Of a stretch of DNA of 64,000 nt, positions 3,103 to 58,537 are shown one piece after another. Numbering within the stretch: position 1 is the first letter of the stretch; each line of letters opens with the position of its first letter. The notes below the pieces were generated by a model that worked only from the letters and a program-made list of their open reading frames with translations, was not told where the DNA came from and searched no databases. The translations under genes were made by a program, and so were the position numbers. Origin of the DNA: an uncultured Methanosarcinales archaeon (GTDB taxonomy: Archaea; Nanobdellota; Nanobdellia; Woesearchaeales; GW2011-AR9); the NCBI GenBank assembly GCA_964344285.1, contig CAYFMM010000003.1, forward strand, positions 67,072-131,071. The letters run 5' to 3'.

Positions 3103-3882
3103 TTAATATTTTTTAAAATCCAAAAGAGGCCCATATTTGTGTTCTAATTGTTGTTTTCCTTTCTGTACAATTTCTGCGTTTGCAGTGTAAGATGCAGGAT
3201 GGCGGTTGTAAATGTAAAGAGGTTTTGGCACATGAATCCCAGGGAATTCTTGCTGTAGACGAAAGAGCAGATCATATTCTGGAAAAATAAAGTTTTTGTC
3301 CCAAAATCCTTTCTCAAGAAGGATTGATTTTGTGAATAAAATCCCACAAGCAAGAGTGTTAAGAATATTTGATGTGGAGACAATTTTTTGTGATTTATTT
3401 CGTAAATCAACTTCAATATAATCTGCATAGGCAAACCCAGCAGTTGGATTTTTTTGTAATACCTGATAAAGGTCTTGTAGAGTAGAAGCAGTAAATTCAT
3501 CATCACCATCTAAGAAGATAACATATTTACCTCGAGCTAAAGACAACCCAATATGGCCCGATTGAATAGCTCCTTGGTTTTCCTGATTAATAATCGTAAG
3601 AGATTGGTTGTCTTTCAAATTTTTATTTTCAAAAGAAGATAAAAGAACCTTAGTTTGGTCAGTACTCCCATCATTGATAACAATTATTTCATAAGTTAAA
3701 TCTGAAAAAACAACCTGATTTAGTGTGCTTTGTACAGCTTTTACAATAAATGTTGCATTGTTGTAAGTTCTAATAATTATAGAAATAAGAGGAGATTTTG
3801 AGTTATTGTTTATGTTTTCTTTTGCCGTAGATTGCACGTTTATTGTAGATTGCACTTGGATTACCTTTGAACCATCTCCCAT
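3103..3882 (-). CDS. family 2 glycosyltransferase
   Basis: GT2 signatures ISIIIRTYNN, VINDGSTD, and the DxD motif FLDGDDEF. Confidence 0.7.
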   Translation of the reverse strand: MGDGSKVIQVQSTINVQSTAKENINNNSKSPLISIIIRTYNNATFIVKAVQSTLNQVVFSDLTYEIIVINDGSTDQTKVLLSSFENKNLKDNQSLTIINQENQGAIQSGHIGLSLARGKYVIFLDGDDEFTASTLQDLYQVLQKNPTAGFAYADYIEVDLRNKSQKIVSTSNILNTLACGILFTKSILLEKGFWDKNFIFPEYDLLFRLQQEFPGIHVPKPLYIYNRHPASYTANAEIVQKGKQQLEHKYGPLLDFKKY

Positions 3883-4952
3883 GTTAAAGGCGTTCCTTTT
3901 TCAAGATGTTGTGTTGCTTGTTTGCCAATAATTTCTTCATAATATTTAGGCTCTAAGCCTACTGAAGGTCGTACTACGCGAATATTTTTATGTGTAAAGA
4001 CTTCTCCCTCTTTAATTGGTTCTGCTACAAATATTGAACGGCGATATTTTGTATTTTTTTGCTCTTTTTCACTTTGTGGTCCAAAGCGTACAGTTCCAGA
4101 TATTTTCTCTGCACGACGGATTGCTTGAACCATTGTAGTGAATTCTTGAGGTCCAACTGAAAAATCAGCGTCAAAACTGTTACTTTTTTCATCTGCTACG
4201 ATATGTTTTTCAACTACACTAGCGCCCATTAAAACTGCTTGTAAAGGAATTTCTATACCTCCATTATTGTCAGAAAATCCAGTTAAAACACCATAACGCT
4301 GTTTCATGTGAAGCATCGTTACAAGGTTAGAATCTTCTAATTTAGGTTCTCTTGCATATGCAGTTACACAATGTAACAAGATAATTGGACCAGAGTTATT
4401 CTCTTTAAGTGTTTGTACAGCTAAATCTACCTCATCTTGAGTTGCAAAACCTACTGAAATGATTACTGGTTTTCCAGTCTGAGCAACTTTTTTAATTAGA
4501 GGAATATGTGTTGCCTCATAAGAAGCTATTTTGTATAATGGAACATCTAATGTTTCAAGAAAATCTACAGCAGTTTCATCAAACGGTGTAGAAAAAAGGA
4601 CCAAACCTTTTTGATGTGCATATTCTTGTAATTCTTTGTGCCATTCCCACGGAGTGTATGCTTCTTGATACAAAGAATGAAGTGTTTTTTTATGCCAAAA
4701 ATCTGGGTTTTCTGTGTTGTTAATAATAAAGTGTTCATTATCACAGTTTAAAGTAATTGTGTCTGCTGTATAGGTTTGTAGTTTAATTGCATCTGCCCCT
4801 GCATCTGCTGCTACGTCAATTATTTTTTTTGCTTTTGCAAAGTCTTGTTCATGATTTGCTGACATCTCTGCAATAATGAAAGTCGGAGAGCCTTCACCAA
4901 TAGTTCTTGAGCCTTTGGGAGTTTGTATTGTAAATTGAGTTGTATGTTCCAT
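3861..4952 (-). CDS. nonulosonic acid synthase (NeuB/PseI family; pseudaminic or legionaminic acid synthase)
   Basis: NeuB-like N-terminal TIM-barrel region (IIAEMSANHEQDF) and a C-terminal SAF/antifreeze-like domain (GEVFTHKNIRVVRP). Confidence 0.8.
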   Translation of the reverse strand: MEHTTQFTIQTPKGSRTIGEGSPTFIIAEMSANHEQDFAKAKKIIDVAADAGADAIKLQTYTADTITLNCDNEHFIINNTENPDFWHKKTLHSLYQEAYTPWEWHKELQEYAHQKGLVLFSTPFDETAVDFLETLDVPLYKIASYEATHIPLIKKVAQTGKPVIISVGFATQDEVDLAVQTLKENNSGPIILLHCVTAYAREPKLEDSNLVTMLHMKQRYGVLTGFSDNNGGIEIPLQAVLMGASVVEKHIVADEKSNSFDADFSVGPQEFTTMVQAIRRAEKISGTVRFGPQSEKEQKNTKYRRSIFVAEPIKEGEVFTHKNIRVVRPSVGLEPKYYEEIIGKQATQHLEKGTPLTWEMVQR

Positions 4953-5003
4953 TTGATATCTTTTTTAATTATGTTTTTTTAATTTAATAAACCTCATTTG
5001 ATT

Positions 5004-7076
5004 TTATCTTCTCGCAAAAATAGACCTAAATTTTTCCCCTCGAAGCAGGCTTGTTACTGAGTTTTGCTCGATTGCTATTGCAACCTTATCAAGTGCTTTA
5101 TCTGCAGCTACAATAAAAGCATACACGTCTTGTTCAGTATGGGCTAAGCTAAAATTATTTACCCCAAGACTAAGGATTCCATGTTCAATTAAGGTTTGTT
5201 GGTACACTGAGAGTAAGTCTTCTGGTTCTAAGTTTTTGATTTTGTTAAATGTAATGCCACAGTGAGGTGATAACCCATAATAATTAATATGTTGTTGAAG
5301 ATTTTTACGTTCAATTAATTTTTGCATCTCTAAGAGCCAAAGGTCTCCTAAGTGTAGAATATGCTTAAATGACTCTGGGCGTTCTAAGATTTCAATTGTT
5401 TTAAGTGCTGCTACAAGAGGGAGAGTTTCTCCTCCAAATGTTGTTGAAATAAATGCACCATCATCAATGAGCTCCATAATTTCCTTTTTACCAACTACTG
5501 CTGATAATGAAAAACCGTTTGCCATACCTTTACCAAATGCCGCAAGATCAGGAGTTACACCATAATGACCTTGAGCTCCAGCAAGCCCCATCCTAAAGCC
5601 GGATACTACTTCATCAAAGATAAGAACTGCACCATGTTGGTGTGTAAGTTGTTTAACTTTTTCAAGAAAATCATCCTCAGGTCCTGTTCCTTGACAAGGT
5701 TCTAAAATAACGGCTGCAACATTTCCTGGATTATCATCAAATATTTTTTTTAGAGATTGTATATCGTTATATGTAAACTTTTTAGTTAATTCTTTTACCG
5801 CATTGGGCACTCCTAAGTTATTAGTTGTTGTTCCAATATACCAATCATGATAGCCATGATAGCCTGAACAAGCAATGATGTCTTTTTTAGTATGTGCCCT
5901 AGCTAGACGGATAGCAGCAGTTGTAGCATCACTTCCATTTTTAACAAATTTTACCATCTCAGCTGCAGGAATAATTTGTGTAAGTTTTTGAGCTAATTCC
6001 ACCTCTAGAGTTGTAGGCTGTGAGAATGTTACCCCTTTATGTAATTGTTCAATTACTGCTTGATTAATTTCTTGATTATTGTATCCAATTGTAACTGGAC
6101 CTAAACCAAGAATAAAATCAATGTATTTATTGCCATCAACATCCCAAACACAAGCTCCGTGTCCTTTTTCTAAGAAAGCAGGTGCTGCTCCTTCACAGAA
6201 ATATTTGTAACTCTTGCTATATGTTTGTGAAGCACTAGGGATTAATTTTTTTGCTCGCTTTAACCATTGTGTTGAAGTTGTAAATGTTTGTATTAAGTGA
6301 GTAGGTTTTTGTGCAAGAGGTTCTTGTACCTGGGATTCTTGTACAAGAGATTTTTCATAGCCTTCATTTCTTTTAAAATTTTCATTCGTTGGAAGAAGGG
6401 AAGAATTTTTGATTGCATCGTCAATTTGTTGAAAAGTTGGATTGTTGCCAAGAGTTTGTATTATTTTTCGAATAAATTCTAAGTCTTCTGCTTGATCTAC
6501 AGTAATTCTAAGATTTGAATAATTTTGTGGAGAGGTAAGGTTAGCCTTTGAAAAGAATTGATTTTTCCAAATATAGGGAGTTACGTGTTCTCGCTCAGAG
6601 GGCAAAGTTGCTTCGTTCCATGCCTTTGTAAGTGTCTTCATGGTAAATACTTCTACATCCATTCCATCAGGGAATGTAGGGGGATGAACGTTTGAAGTAT
6701 AATCGACTCCTTGCTCTTTATGATGTAATATTACTTGATCTATGATTTCAGGATTGATTAAAGGACAGTCTCCAGTGATTCGTACAATAAGGTCTTGTTC
6801 TTTTGCTTGGACAGTTTGTGCTGCTTGGTAATAACGATCCAAAACGTCATTTTCACTCCCTGTAAACGTAAAAACCCCTAACTCTTTTGCTTTTTGCACT
6901 AAAGGCAAATCTTTATCTTGTGTAGTTGTTGCAAGGATTATTTTATCAACTTGTGTTGCTTGTTGAACTCTTTTTATAACATGTTGAAGTAAAGGTTTTT
7001 TAGCAATCTCAAGAAGCATCTTTCCAGGAAGCCTAGATGAACCCATCCGAGCTTGAATTATTGTTATTACTGTCAT
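5004..7076 (-). CDS. bifunctional acylneuraminate-type cytidylyltransferase / class III (HemL-like) aminotransferase fusion
   Basis: N-terminus MTVITIIQARMGSSRLPGKMLL matches the CMP-nonulosonate cytidylyltransferase (SpsF/PseF/NeuA) family. The C-terminal ~430 aa match PLP-dependent aminotransferase class III (glutamate-1-semialdehyde aminomutase-like). Confidence 0.7.
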   Translation of the reverse strand: MTVITIIQARMGSSRLPGKMLLEIAKKPLLQHVIKRVQQATQVDKIILATTTQDKDLPLVQKAKELGVFTFTGSENDVLDRYYQAAQTVQAKEQDLIVRITGDCPLINPEIIDQVILHHKEQGVDYTSNVHPPTFPDGMDVEVFTMKTLTKAWNEATLPSEREHVTPYIWKNQFFSKANLTSPQNYSNLRITVDQAEDLEFIRKIIQTLGNNPTFQQIDDAIKNSSLLPTNENFKRNEGYEKSLVQESQVQEPLAQKPTHLIQTFTTSTQWLKRAKKLIPSASQTYSKSYKYFCEGAAPAFLEKGHGACVWDVDGNKYIDFILGLGPVTIGYNNQEINQAVIEQLHKGVTFSQPTTLEVELAQKLTQIIPAAEMVKFVKNGSDATTAAIRLARAHTKKDIIACSGYHGYHDWYIGTTTNNLGVPNAVKELTKKFTYNDIQSLKKIFDDNPGNVAAVILEPCQGTGPEDDFLEKVKQLTHQHGAVLIFDEVVSGFRMGLAGAQGHYGVTPDLAAFGKGMANGFSLSAVVGKKEIMELIDDGAFISTTFGGETLPLVAALKTIEILERPESFKHILHLGDLWLLEMQKLIERKNLQQHINYYGLSPHCGITFNKIKNLEPEDLLSVYQQTLIEHGILSLGVNNFSLAHTEQDVYAFIVAADKALDKVAIAIEQNSVTSLLRGEKFRSIFARR

Positions 7077-50971: not shown

Positions 50972-51086
50972 AGGTGGACAGCTAACCAAGTTTCCCGCGT
51001 AATGCAGTACACCAAGGAACGGAAGCGCGCTTAACTTCTGTGTTCGAAAAGGGAACAGGTGAACCACGCCCCTATGGCCGTCCAAT
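50972..51086 (-). rRNA. rrf: 5S ribosomal RNA (boundaries approximate)
   Basis: The minus strand reads TGGACGGCCATAGGGGCGTGGTTCACCTGTTCCCTTTTCGAACACAGAAGTTAAGCGCGC...GCTGTCCACC. This carries the universal 5S loop C and helix III motif (CCGAACAC.GAAGTTAAGC). The 5-prime GGACGGC pairs with the 3-prime GCTGTCC as helix I. It is a GC-rich island in AT-rich surroundings. Confidence 0.75.
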
Positions 51087-56134: not shown

Positions 56135-57403
56135 CTATCGCACTATTTTTACTACTTCTTTTATTCCCAGCAATTGTTCATCACCTGTTTGCATATCCCG
56201 TAACATTACTTTCTTTTTTGCAAGTTCGTCTTCGCCAAGGATAATTGCATAAGGAATACCTAAAGCGTTTGCGTATTGTAAGTTTTTGCTAACTCCTTTT
56301 TTTCCAATTACAATGTCTGCTGGGATTTTTGCATCACGCAGCGTTGCTACGATTTCTAAAGATTCATTAAGAGTTCCAAGGGGTACTACTAAAACTTGAG
56401 TTGGAGTTTGCTTTGCTTTTTCTCCTTTTAGTCTAAGAGCATCCATTATTGTTTCAATTCCATACGAAATTCCAATTGCAGGAACTACTCTGCCACCTCC
56501 TAAAAAAGAACCAATGATATTATCGTAGCGTCCACCACCAGCAATAGAAGAGGTAATGGATTTATCTTTAAGGAACGCTTCTGTAACAGTGCCTGTGTAA
56601 TATGCTAAACCTCGTGCTAAGGAGATATCAAATTCTACGTTGTTAATGCCAAGCTGGTTTAGATAGGTAAAGACTTCAGTGAGCTCTTGAATGCCTTCTT
56701 GAGCAGTTTTATTTTGTACTTTTTCTTGGAGTTGTGTAAGAGATGTTTTTTCATCTATGAACTCAAAGATCTTTTTTGCATTTTTGATTTTGCGCTCTTC
56801 TAATTCTTTTAAGACCCCTTTTTGACCAATTTTTTCTAATTTGTCAATTGCAATAATTGCATTTTCTTTGTCTTTAATACCACATTCTTCTAAAATCCCA
56901 TTGAGAATTTTTCGATTGTTTACTTTGATTACTGCATCAAGATTGAGTTTAGAAAAACCAGTGCTAAGAACTGCTAGACATTGTGCATCTGCAAGCATGG
57001 ATGGTGTTCCAATAATATCTGCATCCATTTGCCAAAATTCCCTATATCTACCTAGTTTGATTGGGCCATCTCTGTAAACACGACCTACAGCGTAGCGCTT
57101 AAAGGGCATTTTTAAGGTTGGATTCATTGCCACATATCTTGCAAGCGGTACTGTTAAATCAAAGCGTAAAGCTAGTTTACGTTTTCCCTGGTCTGTTAGT
57201 TTAAATGTTTCTTTCATTGCATCAGAGTCTTCTCCAGCTGCAAATTTTGCAGCAAGGGTTTCATAGCGCTCAATAATTGGTGTTTCAAGTGGCGCAAATC
57301 CATAGAGTTCAAAGACCTCTTGCAATGTGTTAATTACTTTATTTTTGAGTAGTTTATCTTCGGGGTTAATGTCCCGGGTTCCTTTTGCGTTTTGTAATTT
57401 CAT
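56135..57403 (-). CDS. hisS: histidyl-tRNA synthetase
   Basis: Class II aaRS motifs with the HisRS N-terminus (KGTRDINPED...) and a C-terminal anticodon-binding domain. Confidence 0.85.
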   Translation of the reverse strand: MKLQNAKGTRDINPEDKLLKNKVINTLQEVFELYGFAPLETPIIERYETLAAKFAAGEDSDAMKETFKLTDQGKRKLALRFDLTVPLARYVAMNPTLKMPFKRYAVGRVYRDGPIKLGRYREFWQMDADIIGTPSMLADAQCLAVLSTGFSKLNLDAVIKVNNRKILNGILEECGIKDKENAIIAIDKLEKIGQKGVLKELEERKIKNAKKIFEFIDEKTSLTQLQEKVQNKTAQEGIQELTEVFTYLNQLGINNVEFDISLARGLAYYTGTVTEAFLKDKSITSSIAGGGRYDNIIGSFLGGGRVVPAIGISYGIETIMDALRLKGEKAKQTPTQVLVVPLGTLNESLEIVATLRDAKIPADIVIGKKGVSKNLQYANALGIPYAIILGEDELAKKKVMLRDMQTGDEQLLGIKEVVKIVR

Positions 57404-57440: not shown

Positions 57441-57659
57441 TTACTTGTAATTTCCATACAAAGTATATGTGCGTTGATTATTGCCATAGTATTCTATGAT
57501 CATACTAGGAATTGTTTGAAGATAGTCTTCTTGTTCTGCTGTTAGACCATCATTATCTAAGTAACGTTGTTCTTCAATAATTCTGAGTAAAAAAGAGTTA
57601 TTAACAATGAACACCTTGGCTAGTTTTGCTGTCGCTACCTTGACTACCTCTTTGTTCAC
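57441..57659 (-). CDS. hypothetical small protein
   Basis: 72 aa ORF immediately upstream of hisS on the same strand. No motif recognised. Confidence 0.3.
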   Translation of the reverse strand: MNKEVVKVATAKLAKVFIVNNSFLLRIIEEQRYLDNDGLTAEQEDYLQTIPSMIIEYYGNNQRTYTLYGNYK

Positions 57660-57714
57660 TTACTTTTTGTTCAATTCCTTTTTTTGTCATGTTTGTATAT
57701 CTCCCTGTTTAGAG

Positions 57715-57765
57715 TCCAGACGACTAGGCCTGCGAGAGAGGCTCGAACTCCCATTTCCAGATATC
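57715..57765 (-). ncRNA. tRNA-like 3-prime fragment (T-arm plus acceptor 3-prime strand) within a structured intergenic region
   Basis: The minus strand reads GGGAG-TTCGAGC-CTCTC (a T-stem/loop with the TTCRANN loop) followed by TCGCAGG-C. No matching 5-prime half was found nearby. An 8-bp hairpin (CAGAAAAG...CTTTTCTG, 57808-57829) lies next to it. Confidence 0.25.
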
Positions 57766-58080
57766 GATTTCAAAAAAGAATTCACAGTCTAGTGTCTTAC
57801 CTTTACGCACAGAAAAGAGGATACTTTTCTGGCGTCCCAGAAAAATCGTTGTTTTTCTCAGGAGACGATCGCAAGCATAAAAAATGTGGGGACAAACGTC
57901 CTAACGATGATGGTTAGACGTAGAACTAGCTGTTTGTTTTTTGTAATTTAGAATAATAGACTGACAACTAGAAATATCACTAACAGTGAATACACTCAAC
58001 TCTGGTTTGTGTTGTCATAAGGTATCAAAAAGAGTATTCCTATTTAAATTTTTGTAATAAATGTAGTTACAATTATACTC

Positions 58081-58460: not shown

Positions 58461-58537
58461 TGGGGCGACCGGGGGGAATCGAACCCCCTCCTGAAGCTCC
58501 ACAGGCTTCTATGCTAAACCGTTACACCACGGTCGCC
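58461..58537 (-). tRNA. tRNA-His (anticodon GUG) with genome-encoded G-1 and 3-prime CCA
   Basis: The minus strand reads GGCGACCGUGGUGUAACGGUUUAGCAUAGAAGCCUGUGGAGCUUCAGGAGGGGGUUCGAUUCCCCCCGGUCGCCCCA. It has an 8-bp acceptor stem including G-1:C73, anticodon loop CUGUGGA, and T-loop UUCGAUU. Confidence 0.85.

Follow-up and report, generated by a model that had tools for sequence, protein, structure and literature searches.

A probable interrupted second tRNA-His(GUG) gene in the hisS leader of a woesearchaeal archaeon

The stretch of DNA analysed here, referred to as the window, comprises 64,000 nucleotides (nt) from an uncultured archaeon (GenBank assembly GCA_964344285.1, contig CAYFMM010000003.1, positions 67,072 to 131,071). 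It stems from a low-GC DPANN archaeon and encodes a thermosome as well as a histidyl-tRNA synthetase (HisRS, the hisS product), for which a homologue search returned proteins from metagenome-assembled genomes of Candidatus Woesearchaeota as the closest. The minus strand reads, in this order, a DAGK-like gene, a tRNA-His gene, an open reading frame (ORF) of 107 amino acids (aa), about 390 nt devoid of any large ORF, a 72-aa ORF, and hisS. Within the part without a large ORF, an initial annotation made from the letters alone had singled out positions 57700-57920, correctly placing them between hisS and tRNA-His, as a structured, GC-enriched interval that carries the isolated 3' third of a tRNA; the enrichment is modest (0.39-0.45, compared to 0.25-0.34 in the flanks). 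That the interval is structured and derived from a tRNA is borne out by our analysis, while none of the three identities offered for it, namely a remnant attachment (att) site, the 3' half of a split tRNA, or a part of the signal recognition particle (SRP) RNA or RNase P RNA, stands. Instead, the interval very probably holds a complete, interrupted second tRNA-His(GUG), which has orthologues in related archaea and which we call type II, to distinguish it from the annotated type I gene upstream.

On the minus strand, the 149 nt from 57876 to 57728 contain every element of a tRNA-His(GUG) in canonical register, broken by two inserts (Table 1). The T-arm/acceptor fragment reported initially, GGGAG-TTCGAGC-CTCTC-TCGCAGG-C, is real, and its 25-mer GGGAGTTCGAGCCTCTCTCGCAGGC is the sole match in the window at up to three mismatches, with 0 expected. 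It forms a T-arm at 57752-57736 with a stem of five base pairs (bp) that includes G53-C61, and with the loop T54 T55 C56 R57 A58. A complementary 5' acceptor strand, said to be missing nearby, is in fact present 130 nt upstream: G-CTTGCGA (57876-57869) pairs with TCGCAGG-C (57735-57728), yielding an acceptor of 8 bp, including one G.U pair and G-1:C73, the extra pair that is the hallmark of tRNA-His. After excision of 57862-57805 and 57781-57763, the D-stem, the anticodon stem, the variable loop, U8, G18 G19, U33 and the GUG anticodon are all in place. The unconstrained minimum free energy (MFE) structure of the 149-nt precursor, calculated with RNAfold, is exactly this cloverleaf, at -47.9 kcal/mol; in it, the D-stem closes a loop that contains both hairpins.

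General detectors are blind to this gene. Neither ARAGORN at default settings or with its anticodon-intron option, nor the Rfam tRNA model at E<=10, reported it. Default ARAGORN, which finds nothing in the unspliced DNA, called a tRNA-His(gtg) of 72-73 nt once 57862-57805 (or 57862-57806) and 57781-57763 had been excised; at low stringency, it produced only an insignificant 'tRNA-Arg(tct)' with the same acceptor, plus spurious calls on the opposite strand. Rfam returned nothing at its gathering threshold or at E<=10, but a tRNA-His-specific covariance model, R1, built from the tRNA-His genes of 16 relatives with the candidate left out, matched it with 17.2 bits (E=0.05) as the second-best hit in the window, in an alignment that covers exon 2 (AAAGGUAAG-AC-A-CUAGA-CUGUG), a 21-nt insert and exon 3. 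In shuffles of the whole 64-kb window, a T-arm and an 8-bp acceptor with G-1:C73 within 400 nt turned up in 2% of 300 cases, and a register-based search for the full interrupted His-type frame had no success in any of 300 composition-preserving shuffles; the real window has exactly two such frames, the annotated tRNA-His and the candidate. Folding Z-scores of the whole region (-1.9 on the minus and -1.2 on the plus strand) were uninformative.

Two other ways of reading the same nucleotides were tried and discarded. In one (Model 1), the upstream copy GGAC-G-CCAGA serves as the D-stem 3' strand and anticodon-stem 5' strand, and the stems fit there too; this register entails, however, a 40-nt insert at position 31/32 without a bulge-helix-bulge (BHB) motif and a D-loop lacking G18 G19, and both R1 and the MFE structure pick the downstream copy. 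In the other, the first 'CTGTGCG' (at about 57813) was considered as the anticodon, which comparison with the related locus L041 identified as derived from the intron.

A tRNA-His gene lies directly upstream of hisS in many Woesearchaeota, and four related loci hold a clear orthologue of the type II gene. These are L041 and L048, the HisRS of which are 65% and 66% identical to that of the window, and L050 and L051, to which the small protein gene downstream had led (its products are 76% and 73% identical). All four genes are situated between a conserved micro-ORF with a His codon and the hisS operon, and have G-1:C73, the unusual first pair C1-G72, the loop CTGTGA with A37, and a similar T-arm. 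R1 scored them with 65.4 (L041), 63.6 (L048), 65.7 (L050) and 36.9 bits (L051, a local match). Across the five type II genes, 97% of the stem cells are paired, with 100% pairing in the acceptor and T stems of every gene, and compensatory changes occur in 8 of the 22 pairs. No variation is seen at G-1:C73, C1-G72, G18 G19, the T-loop or the CUGUGA of the anticodon loop, and the spliced sequence of the candidate satisfies 22/22 pairs of the family cloverleaf. By inspection, no TATA-like box is found at -25 to -35 of the type II genes. The type I gene of the window, by contrast, has its own TATA-like box, TTTTTAAAGG, some 30 nt upstream, and L048 and L050 likewise carry, at an equal relative position, a near-identical type I gene with G1-C72, CTGTGG and a TATA-like box of its own. 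Types I and II therefore coexist across long evolutionary distances, and the candidate is more than a surplus duplicate in the process of being lost. At L044, the tRNA-His in this leader position has G1-C72 and is not of type II. Introns of 14-31 nt at position 37/38, missed by default ARAGORN and found by eye, with ARAGORN -i, or with R1, are present in the tRNA-His genes of L004/L016, L019/L031/L037, L041, L044, L045 and L048.

Table 1. Features of the hisS leader and adjoining genes, in window coordinates
Feature	Position	Strand	Details
Type I tRNA-His(GUG)	58464..58537	minus	intron-less, G-1, G1-C72, loop CTGTGG; ARAGORN; Rfam 60.3 bits; model R1 81.5 bits
TATA-like box TTTAAATA	58041..58048	minus	putative promoter; 22 nt before the uORF1 ATG, leaderless-type; conserved in L041 and L044 (alignment A1), seen in L048 and L050
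Upstream ORF 1 (uORF1), MTTQTRVECIHC and stop	57980..58018	minus	His codon CAC (57988-57986) one codon before the stop; motif census, alignment A1
+1-frame continuation, TVSDISSCQSIILNYKKQTASSTSNHHR and stop	57901..57987	minus	from the uORF1 His codon; ends CAT CAT CGT TAG (His codons 57912-57907, stop 57903-57901); putatively translated
Short spacer	57877..57901	minus	4-bp hairpin GGAC/GTCC (57901-57898 / 57893-57890); T6 run (57884-57879) directly 5' of G-1
Type II tRNA-His, exon 1	57863..57876	minus	G-1, acceptor 5' strand CTTGCGA (1-7), U8 C9 (57868-57867), D-stem 5' strand GTCT (10-13; 57866-57863)
D-loop insertion	57805..57862	minus	58 nt; CCT and two tandem 27-nt hairpin units
Exon 2	57782..57804	minus	D-loop AAAGGTA (G18 G19; 57804-57798), D-stem 3' strand AGAC (57797-57794), A26 (57793), anticodon-stem 5' strand CTAGA (57792-57788), loop C32 U33 G34 U35 G36 A37 (57787-57782)
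37/38 insertion, ATTCTTTTTTGAAATCGAT	57763..57781	minus	19 nt; canonical intron position
Exon 3	57728..57762	minus	A38 (57762), anticodon-stem 3' strand TCTGG (57761-57757), variable loop AAAT (57756-57753); T-arm GGGAG-TTCGAGC-CTCTC, acceptor 3' strand TCGCAGG and discriminator C73 (57752-57728), the fragment of the initial annotation
3' trailer	57691..57727	minus	block GGACTCTAAACAGGGAGA; Shine-Dalgarno-like GGGAG 10 nt before the uORF2 ATG; conserved in L041 and L044 (alignment A1), similar in L050
uORF2, MTKKGIEQKVSEQRGSQGSDSKTSQGVHC and stop	57601..57690	minus	ends SQGVHC; His codon CAT (57609-57607) after GTT
Small conserved protein gene	57441..57659	minus	72-aa ORF with GTG start; +1 frame of uORF2; ends 37 nt before the hisS ATG
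hisS (histidyl-tRNA synthetase, 422 aa)	56135..57403	minus	gene downstream of the leader; Pfam tRNA-synt_His and HGTP_anticodon; homologues

The insert at 37/38 has counterparts at the same site in the orthologues, where introns of 26-35 nt end in GCAG, GCGG or ACAG plus 2 nt; L050 is intron-less. Its BHB-like fold has correctly placed bulges, a 5-bp outer helix formed by the anticodon stem and a 3-bp inner helix TTC/GAA. The D-loop insert consists of CCT, a unit A (57859-57833, with the stem AGAAAAA/TTTTTCT), C57832, and a unit B (57831-57805), which contains the perfect 8-bp hairpin CAGAAAAG/CTTTTCTG (57831-57824 / 57817-57810) already recognised in the initial annotation. The two units are paralogous, being identical at 18 of 29 positions and differing in their stems by a compensatory change from A-T to G-C. 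Unit A forms a strict BHB, TCTC[CT|G]..GGGA[CG|C], with a 7-bp inner helix, and unit B a relaxed one with 3/4 central pairs.

Several observations speak against the splicing of these inserts or against a functional tRNA altogether. In the 37/38 insert, the central helix CTGT/ATCG has only 3/4 pairs (C-G, U x C, G.U, U-A), compared to 4/4 in the orthologues with introns, and of the five type II genes, only that of the window has the D-loop insert. BHB motifs had to be dropped as proof of splicing, since a strict BHB-like motif occurs in 31% of shuffles of this A/T-rich sequence and those seen here are not significant. Moreover, the cuts predicted from them would leave D-loops CCAAAGGTA or CCTCAAAGGTA, with C instead of the usual A at position 14, and ARAGORN rejects CCTCAAAGGTA; the D-loop versions that it does accept, AAAGGTA and TAAAGGTA, both lack BHB support, so that a clean AAAGGTA loop needs a cut for which there is no such motif. 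As no relative is closer than about 75% for the small protein or 66% for HisRS, the latter being the highest HisRS identity in a set of 5.8 billion proteins, the inserts are without support from covariation. The type II gene of L050 has two mismatches in the anticodon stem, suggesting relaxed constraint on that domain, and with an intact type I tRNA-His 590 nt upstream in the window, a loss of decoding by the type II gene could be tolerated. Because BHB motifs are common in shuffles and the predicted cuts give C14, we can only infer from the sequence that the D-loop insert is spliced. EndA, the archaeal splicing endonuclease, is not among the best 25 Pfam families listed for the 49 ORFs of the window, which is uninformative for 64 kb of a genome. 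Runs of 5-6 T residues (ATTTTTCT, TTCTTTTTTG) were also seen inside the inserts (57846-57842 and 57776-57771 on the minus strand), as well as in the introns of L041, L048 and L051. Oligo-T is a termination signal in archaea, so these runs could end the type II transcript prematurely.

In sequence, the D-loop insert looks like incomplete repeats, in tandem, of the segment of the same gene that spans the D-stem 3' strand, position 26, the anticodon-stem 5' strand and the intron; for example, its TGGGACGCCAGA matches TGGCACGCTAGA in L041. Judged by these resemblances, it seems to have originated when the 5' strand of the anticodon arm and the intron were partially duplicated in tandem. The copy retained in the exons, CTAGACTGTGA, is identical to that of L041, whereas 5 of 11 positions have changed in the duplicate CCAGAAAAGTA, which argues for purifying selection on the exons after the duplication.

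Taking the locus as a whole, the best explanation, to which we give even chances, is that the type II tRNA-His is expressed as part of the hisS leader and matures into a decoding tRNA. Since it lacks a TATA box of its own, it would be co-transcribed from the putative uORF1 promoter; RNase P and RNase Z would release the interrupted tRNA from the leader transcript, EndA would cut the inserts at the BHB-like motifs, and RtcB would join the exons to a tRNA-His of about 72-76 nt. It is conceivable, though we consider it unlikely, that the element has ceased to decode and is kept as a structural signal in the leader, its inserts never being spliced. Its acceptor and T-arm helix might then provide an RNase P/RNase Z site that parts the uORF1 RNA from the uORF2-hisS mRNA, or its G-1:C73 acceptor and GUG loop might bind HisRS for feedback on its own mRNA. 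Such a role would accord with acceptor and T stems that are fully paired in 5/5 genes, set against the anticodon-stem mismatches of L050 and the 58-nt D-loop insert of the window; with the invariable embedding of type II genes in a leader, without their own TATA box; with the coexisting type I tRNA-His, which has its own promoter, in the window, L048 and L050; and with the weak BHB support for splicing. A mere processing signal, however, would not need the CUGUGA loop, G18 G19 and the T-loop that are invariant in all five genes, and three of the four orthologues have the appearance of ordinary tRNA genes, their BHB introns being good and canonical; the fourth, the intron-less L050, is the one with two anticodon-stem mismatches. 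We also know of no precedent for HisRS binding its own mRNA, which speaks against the feedback variant.

Still less probable, in our estimate, is a decaying pseudogene, inactivated in this lineage by the tandem duplications in the D and anticodon region and now drifting, with stems that are intact merely because the event was recent. The lineage-specific insert, the weakened BHB at 37/38, the redundant type I gene nearby and the failure of standard detectors would all fit, but drift is hard to reconcile with duplicated copies that have fallen to about 50-60% identity while one set of exons retains 22/22 pairs and all universal tRNA bases examined, or with an anticodon-arm 5' strand and loop identical to those of L041. 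The identities proposed initially have very little left to recommend them beyond the isolated look of the T-arm/acceptor fragment when it is read without tools. A lone 3' fragment or a split-tRNA half is contradicted by the 5' acceptor strand, D-stem, GTG anticodon arm and variable loop, which are contiguous with the fragment in the same 149 nt and in canonical register, and by full-length orthologues at the same site. For an att remnant, the 3' end is too unlike that of the neighbouring type I tRNA-His, agreeing at about 15 and differing at about 10 of 25 positions; between the two tRNA-His genes there are only the 107-aa ORF and the uORF leader, with no integrase, and the layout is the same in L048 and L050. 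SRP RNA and RNase P RNA find no backing in Rfam, as none of 4227 families, tmRNA (transfer-messenger RNA) and T-box included, matched within 57700-57920 at E<=10.

Disrupted tRNA genes with multiple introns, including introns in the D-loop, are well documented in Archaea (PMC5829648, PMC3239211, PMC4090602); in Methanopyrus kandleri tRNA-Glu(UUC), a D-loop HBh' intron is combined with a canonical one (PMC5829648, PMC3239211, PMC4090602). More tRNA gene disruption has been associated with DPANN endonucleases that carry an extra loop, L3, and DPANN genomes are expected to contain disrupted tRNAs that have escaped detection (PMC5829648). Like the multi-intron tRNAs of M. kandleri, Thermoproteales and ARMAN/DPANN, the candidate is a contiguous gene missed by standard detectors, with hairpin-containing inserts at 37/38 and in the D-loop that are flanked by BHB-like motifs. 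It departs from them in that its D-loop insert consists of two tandem paralogous units, apparently derived from its own anticodon arm and intron, in that its BHB motifs are statistically no better than chance, and in being a second, diverged tRNA-His (C1-G72, A37) inside an mRNA leader. While disrupted tRNA genes as such are known, it is thus the tandem-duplicated D-loop insert and the location of a second tRNA-His lineage within an mRNA leader that are unusual here.

A counterpart among the relatives is the tRNA-His of L018 (344-457), which has a clean 23-nt BHB intron in the D-loop, GTAT[AA|A]..GTAC[AT|C], and an 18-nt intron at 37/38. In the central helix of its D-loop intron, the D-stem 5' strand pairs with a pseudo-3' strand inside the intron, the same logic as in the candidate; unlike the candidate, L018 has a single D-loop intron with a clean BHB, a normal predicted mature D-loop (AACGGTTA) and G1-C72. 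The same locus (2163-2500) has a second tRNA-His beside hisS, with an odd T-loop (CAAGG ATCGCGA CCTTG) and followed by a 270-nt GC-rich structured spacer. The candidate also recalls the split tRNAs of Nanoarchaeum equitans, in that the 3' portion of a tRNA seemed to be orphaned in a DPANN archaeon; both of its halves, however, are located in one 149-nt stretch of one strand, and a complementary pair of GC-rich leader and trailer is neither needed nor present. In mitochondrial tRNA punctuation and in MALAT1 mascRNA, tRNA-like elements direct the processing of longer transcripts. The candidate, too, has a tRNA shape within a longer transcript that could be cleaved by RNase P and RNase Z, yet it differs in being orthologous to genuine-looking tRNA-His genes and in keeping its anticodon loop.

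The leader in which the type II gene is embedded has conserved features of its own. At about 27 related loci (among L003-L051), a micro-ORF that starts with ATG 20-35 nt after a TATA-like box is found upstream of tRNA-His, hisS or hutH. It carries the block (D/E)(C/Y)(I/L/V/P)H, typically GAT-TGT-ATT-CAT, with a stop 0-3 codons later; uORF1 and uORF2 are the examples in the window. CCC-CAT replaces ATT-CAT in L050 and L051, which allows perfect re-pairing in the +1 frame, and CTT-CAT and GTT-CAT variants exist as well; the L050 equivalent of uORF2, for instance, reads ..KTSQDLH.. with CTT CAT. Downstream of the conserved His codon, the +1 frame is protected: it exceeds the +2 frame in length at 21/21 non-identical motif sites, with medians of 61 and 14 open codons, respectively. 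Its first codon is TTG, CTG or GTG, without a conserved start, and it usually ends at or next to the following start codon, overlapping hisS or the next uORF in ATGA or TAATG. In the six leaders of the window type (the five with type II genes and L044), the +1 frame is open for 18-41 codons and closes on 2-3 His codons, at a distance of 12-55 nt from the tRNA. The initial annotation's statement that the interval has no credible ORF therefore needs to be qualified at the 5' edge, where 57920-57901 represent the end of this conserved micro-ORF extension (CAT CAT CGT TAG). For the small protein encoded beyond the tRNA, L051 provides an in-frame ATG, whereas in the window (+1 frame 57608-57441) and in L050 the protein is in +1 relative to an ATG led by a Shine-Dalgarno-like sequence. 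At loci with only a type I gene (L005, L006, L008, L010, L019, L027, L031, L034, L037, L038 and L045), the +1 frame was seen to cross the tRNA-His and to stop at the start codon of hisS or uORF2, and the distances from motif to tRNA (91, 82, 73, 85 and 52 nt) agree modulo 3; were it translated there, the tRNA gene would lie inside a translated frame.

These patterns raise the tentative possibility that the interrupted type II tRNA-His is one module of an undescribed leader in Woesearchaeota that senses histidyl-tRNA through +1 frameshifting. A ribosome on the leaderless ATG micro-ORF, with its (A/C/G)TT-CAT or CCC-CAT, would pause at the His codon when His-tRNA is scarce, the P-site tRNA would slip by +1 onto TTC or CCC, and translation would continue in the +1 frame. 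At some loci, it would arrive at a further His-His checkpoint immediately 5' of the type II tRNA-His, and elsewhere at the next start codon, that of hisS, the small conserved protein or hutH, and the outcome would be that the histidine-charging machinery is switched on. A conserved DNA operator, or internal initiation at TTG/GTG, are alternatives that would dispense with frameshifting.

Regulatory +1 frameshift sites are known from prfB (CUU-UGA-C) and Ty1 (CUU-AGG-C), and bacterial his operons are attenuated by a leader peptide. As in prfB and Ty1, the P-site codons ATT, CTT, GTT and CCC can re-pair in +1 before a potentially 'hungry' codon, here for His, and as in the bacterial his leader, short ATG-led ORFs with His codons just before their end precede His-related genes. 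In contrast to the seven His codons of the bacterial leader, uORF1 of Woesearchaeota has a single one, and an analysis of the consensus structure of six leaders found no antiterminator/terminator pair, only a conserved 4-bp hairpin in 4/6 loci. This hairpin, GGAC/GTCC, covaries in those 4/6 loci, with 2/4 pairs compensatory, and is not conserved in L050 and L051. It is one of two mutually exclusive hairpins at 57920-57890 of the minus strand, the other being CGTCTAAC/GTTAGGACG with CAU CAU in its loop, for which no covariation is seen. A role of the spacer hairpin and the T6 run as terminator or attenuator would be speculative. Neither archaeal His leader peptides nor archaeal +1 frameshifting turned up in our literature searches; a review from 2021 lists a single programmed frameshift in Archaea, a -1 event, and none in +1 (PMC8211752).

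Leaders of a different make-up were noticed in L023, L025 and L029, more distant loci with HisRS 46-51% identical to that of the window; the neighbour genes of L023 and L025 are not taxonomically diagnostic. They contain ORFs with 4-5 consecutive His codons (HHHH/HHHHH), at 1968-2012 in L023 (MKQMNTIHHHHLSQ), 1941-1988 in L025 (MKNYKQFHHHHHSEF) and 2023-2067 in L029 (MENTYTSKKHHHHQ), each up to a stop codon and each followed by a hairpin and a T-run (GCCAGCnAAAGCTGGC-TTTT), upstream of tRNA-His and hisS, and thereby resemble the classical bacterial his attenuator; their presence counts in favour of the His-sensing idea. About 100 nt past the intact tRNA-His, the same loci have a second copy of the tRNA-His 3' end (AAGTCCC, the acceptor 3' strand and CCCA), with GC-rich hairpins inserted (approximately 2311-2330 in L023, 2217-2246 in L025 and 2340-2410 in L029). 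A conserved hairpin, TTCTTCGCTCC..GGAGCTACGAATGGCRCAGCC, follows the second 3'-end copy in L023, L029 and L030, and in L023 and L030 there is a repeat of the 5' acceptor strand upstream as well. A hutH gene (Lyase_aromatic, of the histidine ammonia-lyase type) is part of the hisS operon in L039/L040 (382-2504), in L039 behind a His-codon micro-ORF, and in L025 a hutH-type gene (3721-5370) follows hisS.

Among the neighbouring genes, the 72-aa ORF has no Pfam match. It encodes a real, conserved and rare protein, with only three members among 5.8 billion proteins: besides that of the window, P0122 of L050 (76% identity) and P0123 of L051 (73%), which share the core ..IIEEQRYLDND..MIVEYY..NQRTYTLYGNYK up to the stop. 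Elsewhere in the window, Rfam located a 5S ribosomal RNA (rRNA) gene at 50973-51085 on the minus strand (69 bits); as no 16S or 23S rRNA gene is present anywhere in the 64 kb, it is unlinked from the other rRNA genes.

That a complete tRNA gene can be invisible to both ARAGORN and Rfam supports the published suspicion of hidden disrupted tRNA genes in DPANN, and counts of missing tRNAs in these archaea need to be read with care. If, as it appears, the D-loop insert stems from the anticodon arm and intron of the same gene through incomplete copying in tandem, it exemplifies one concrete way in which non-canonical tRNA inserts could originate. Woesearchaeota appear to maintain two lineages of tRNA-His, one with its own promoter and the other in the hisS leader behind His-codon micro-ORFs, a layout suggesting that these organisms, whose genomes are minimal, couple the regulation of tRNA-His to that of HisRS. 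If the +1 recoding proposed for this leader were to prove true, it would represent a new kind of amino-acid sensing, and the first programmed +1 frameshift in Archaea.

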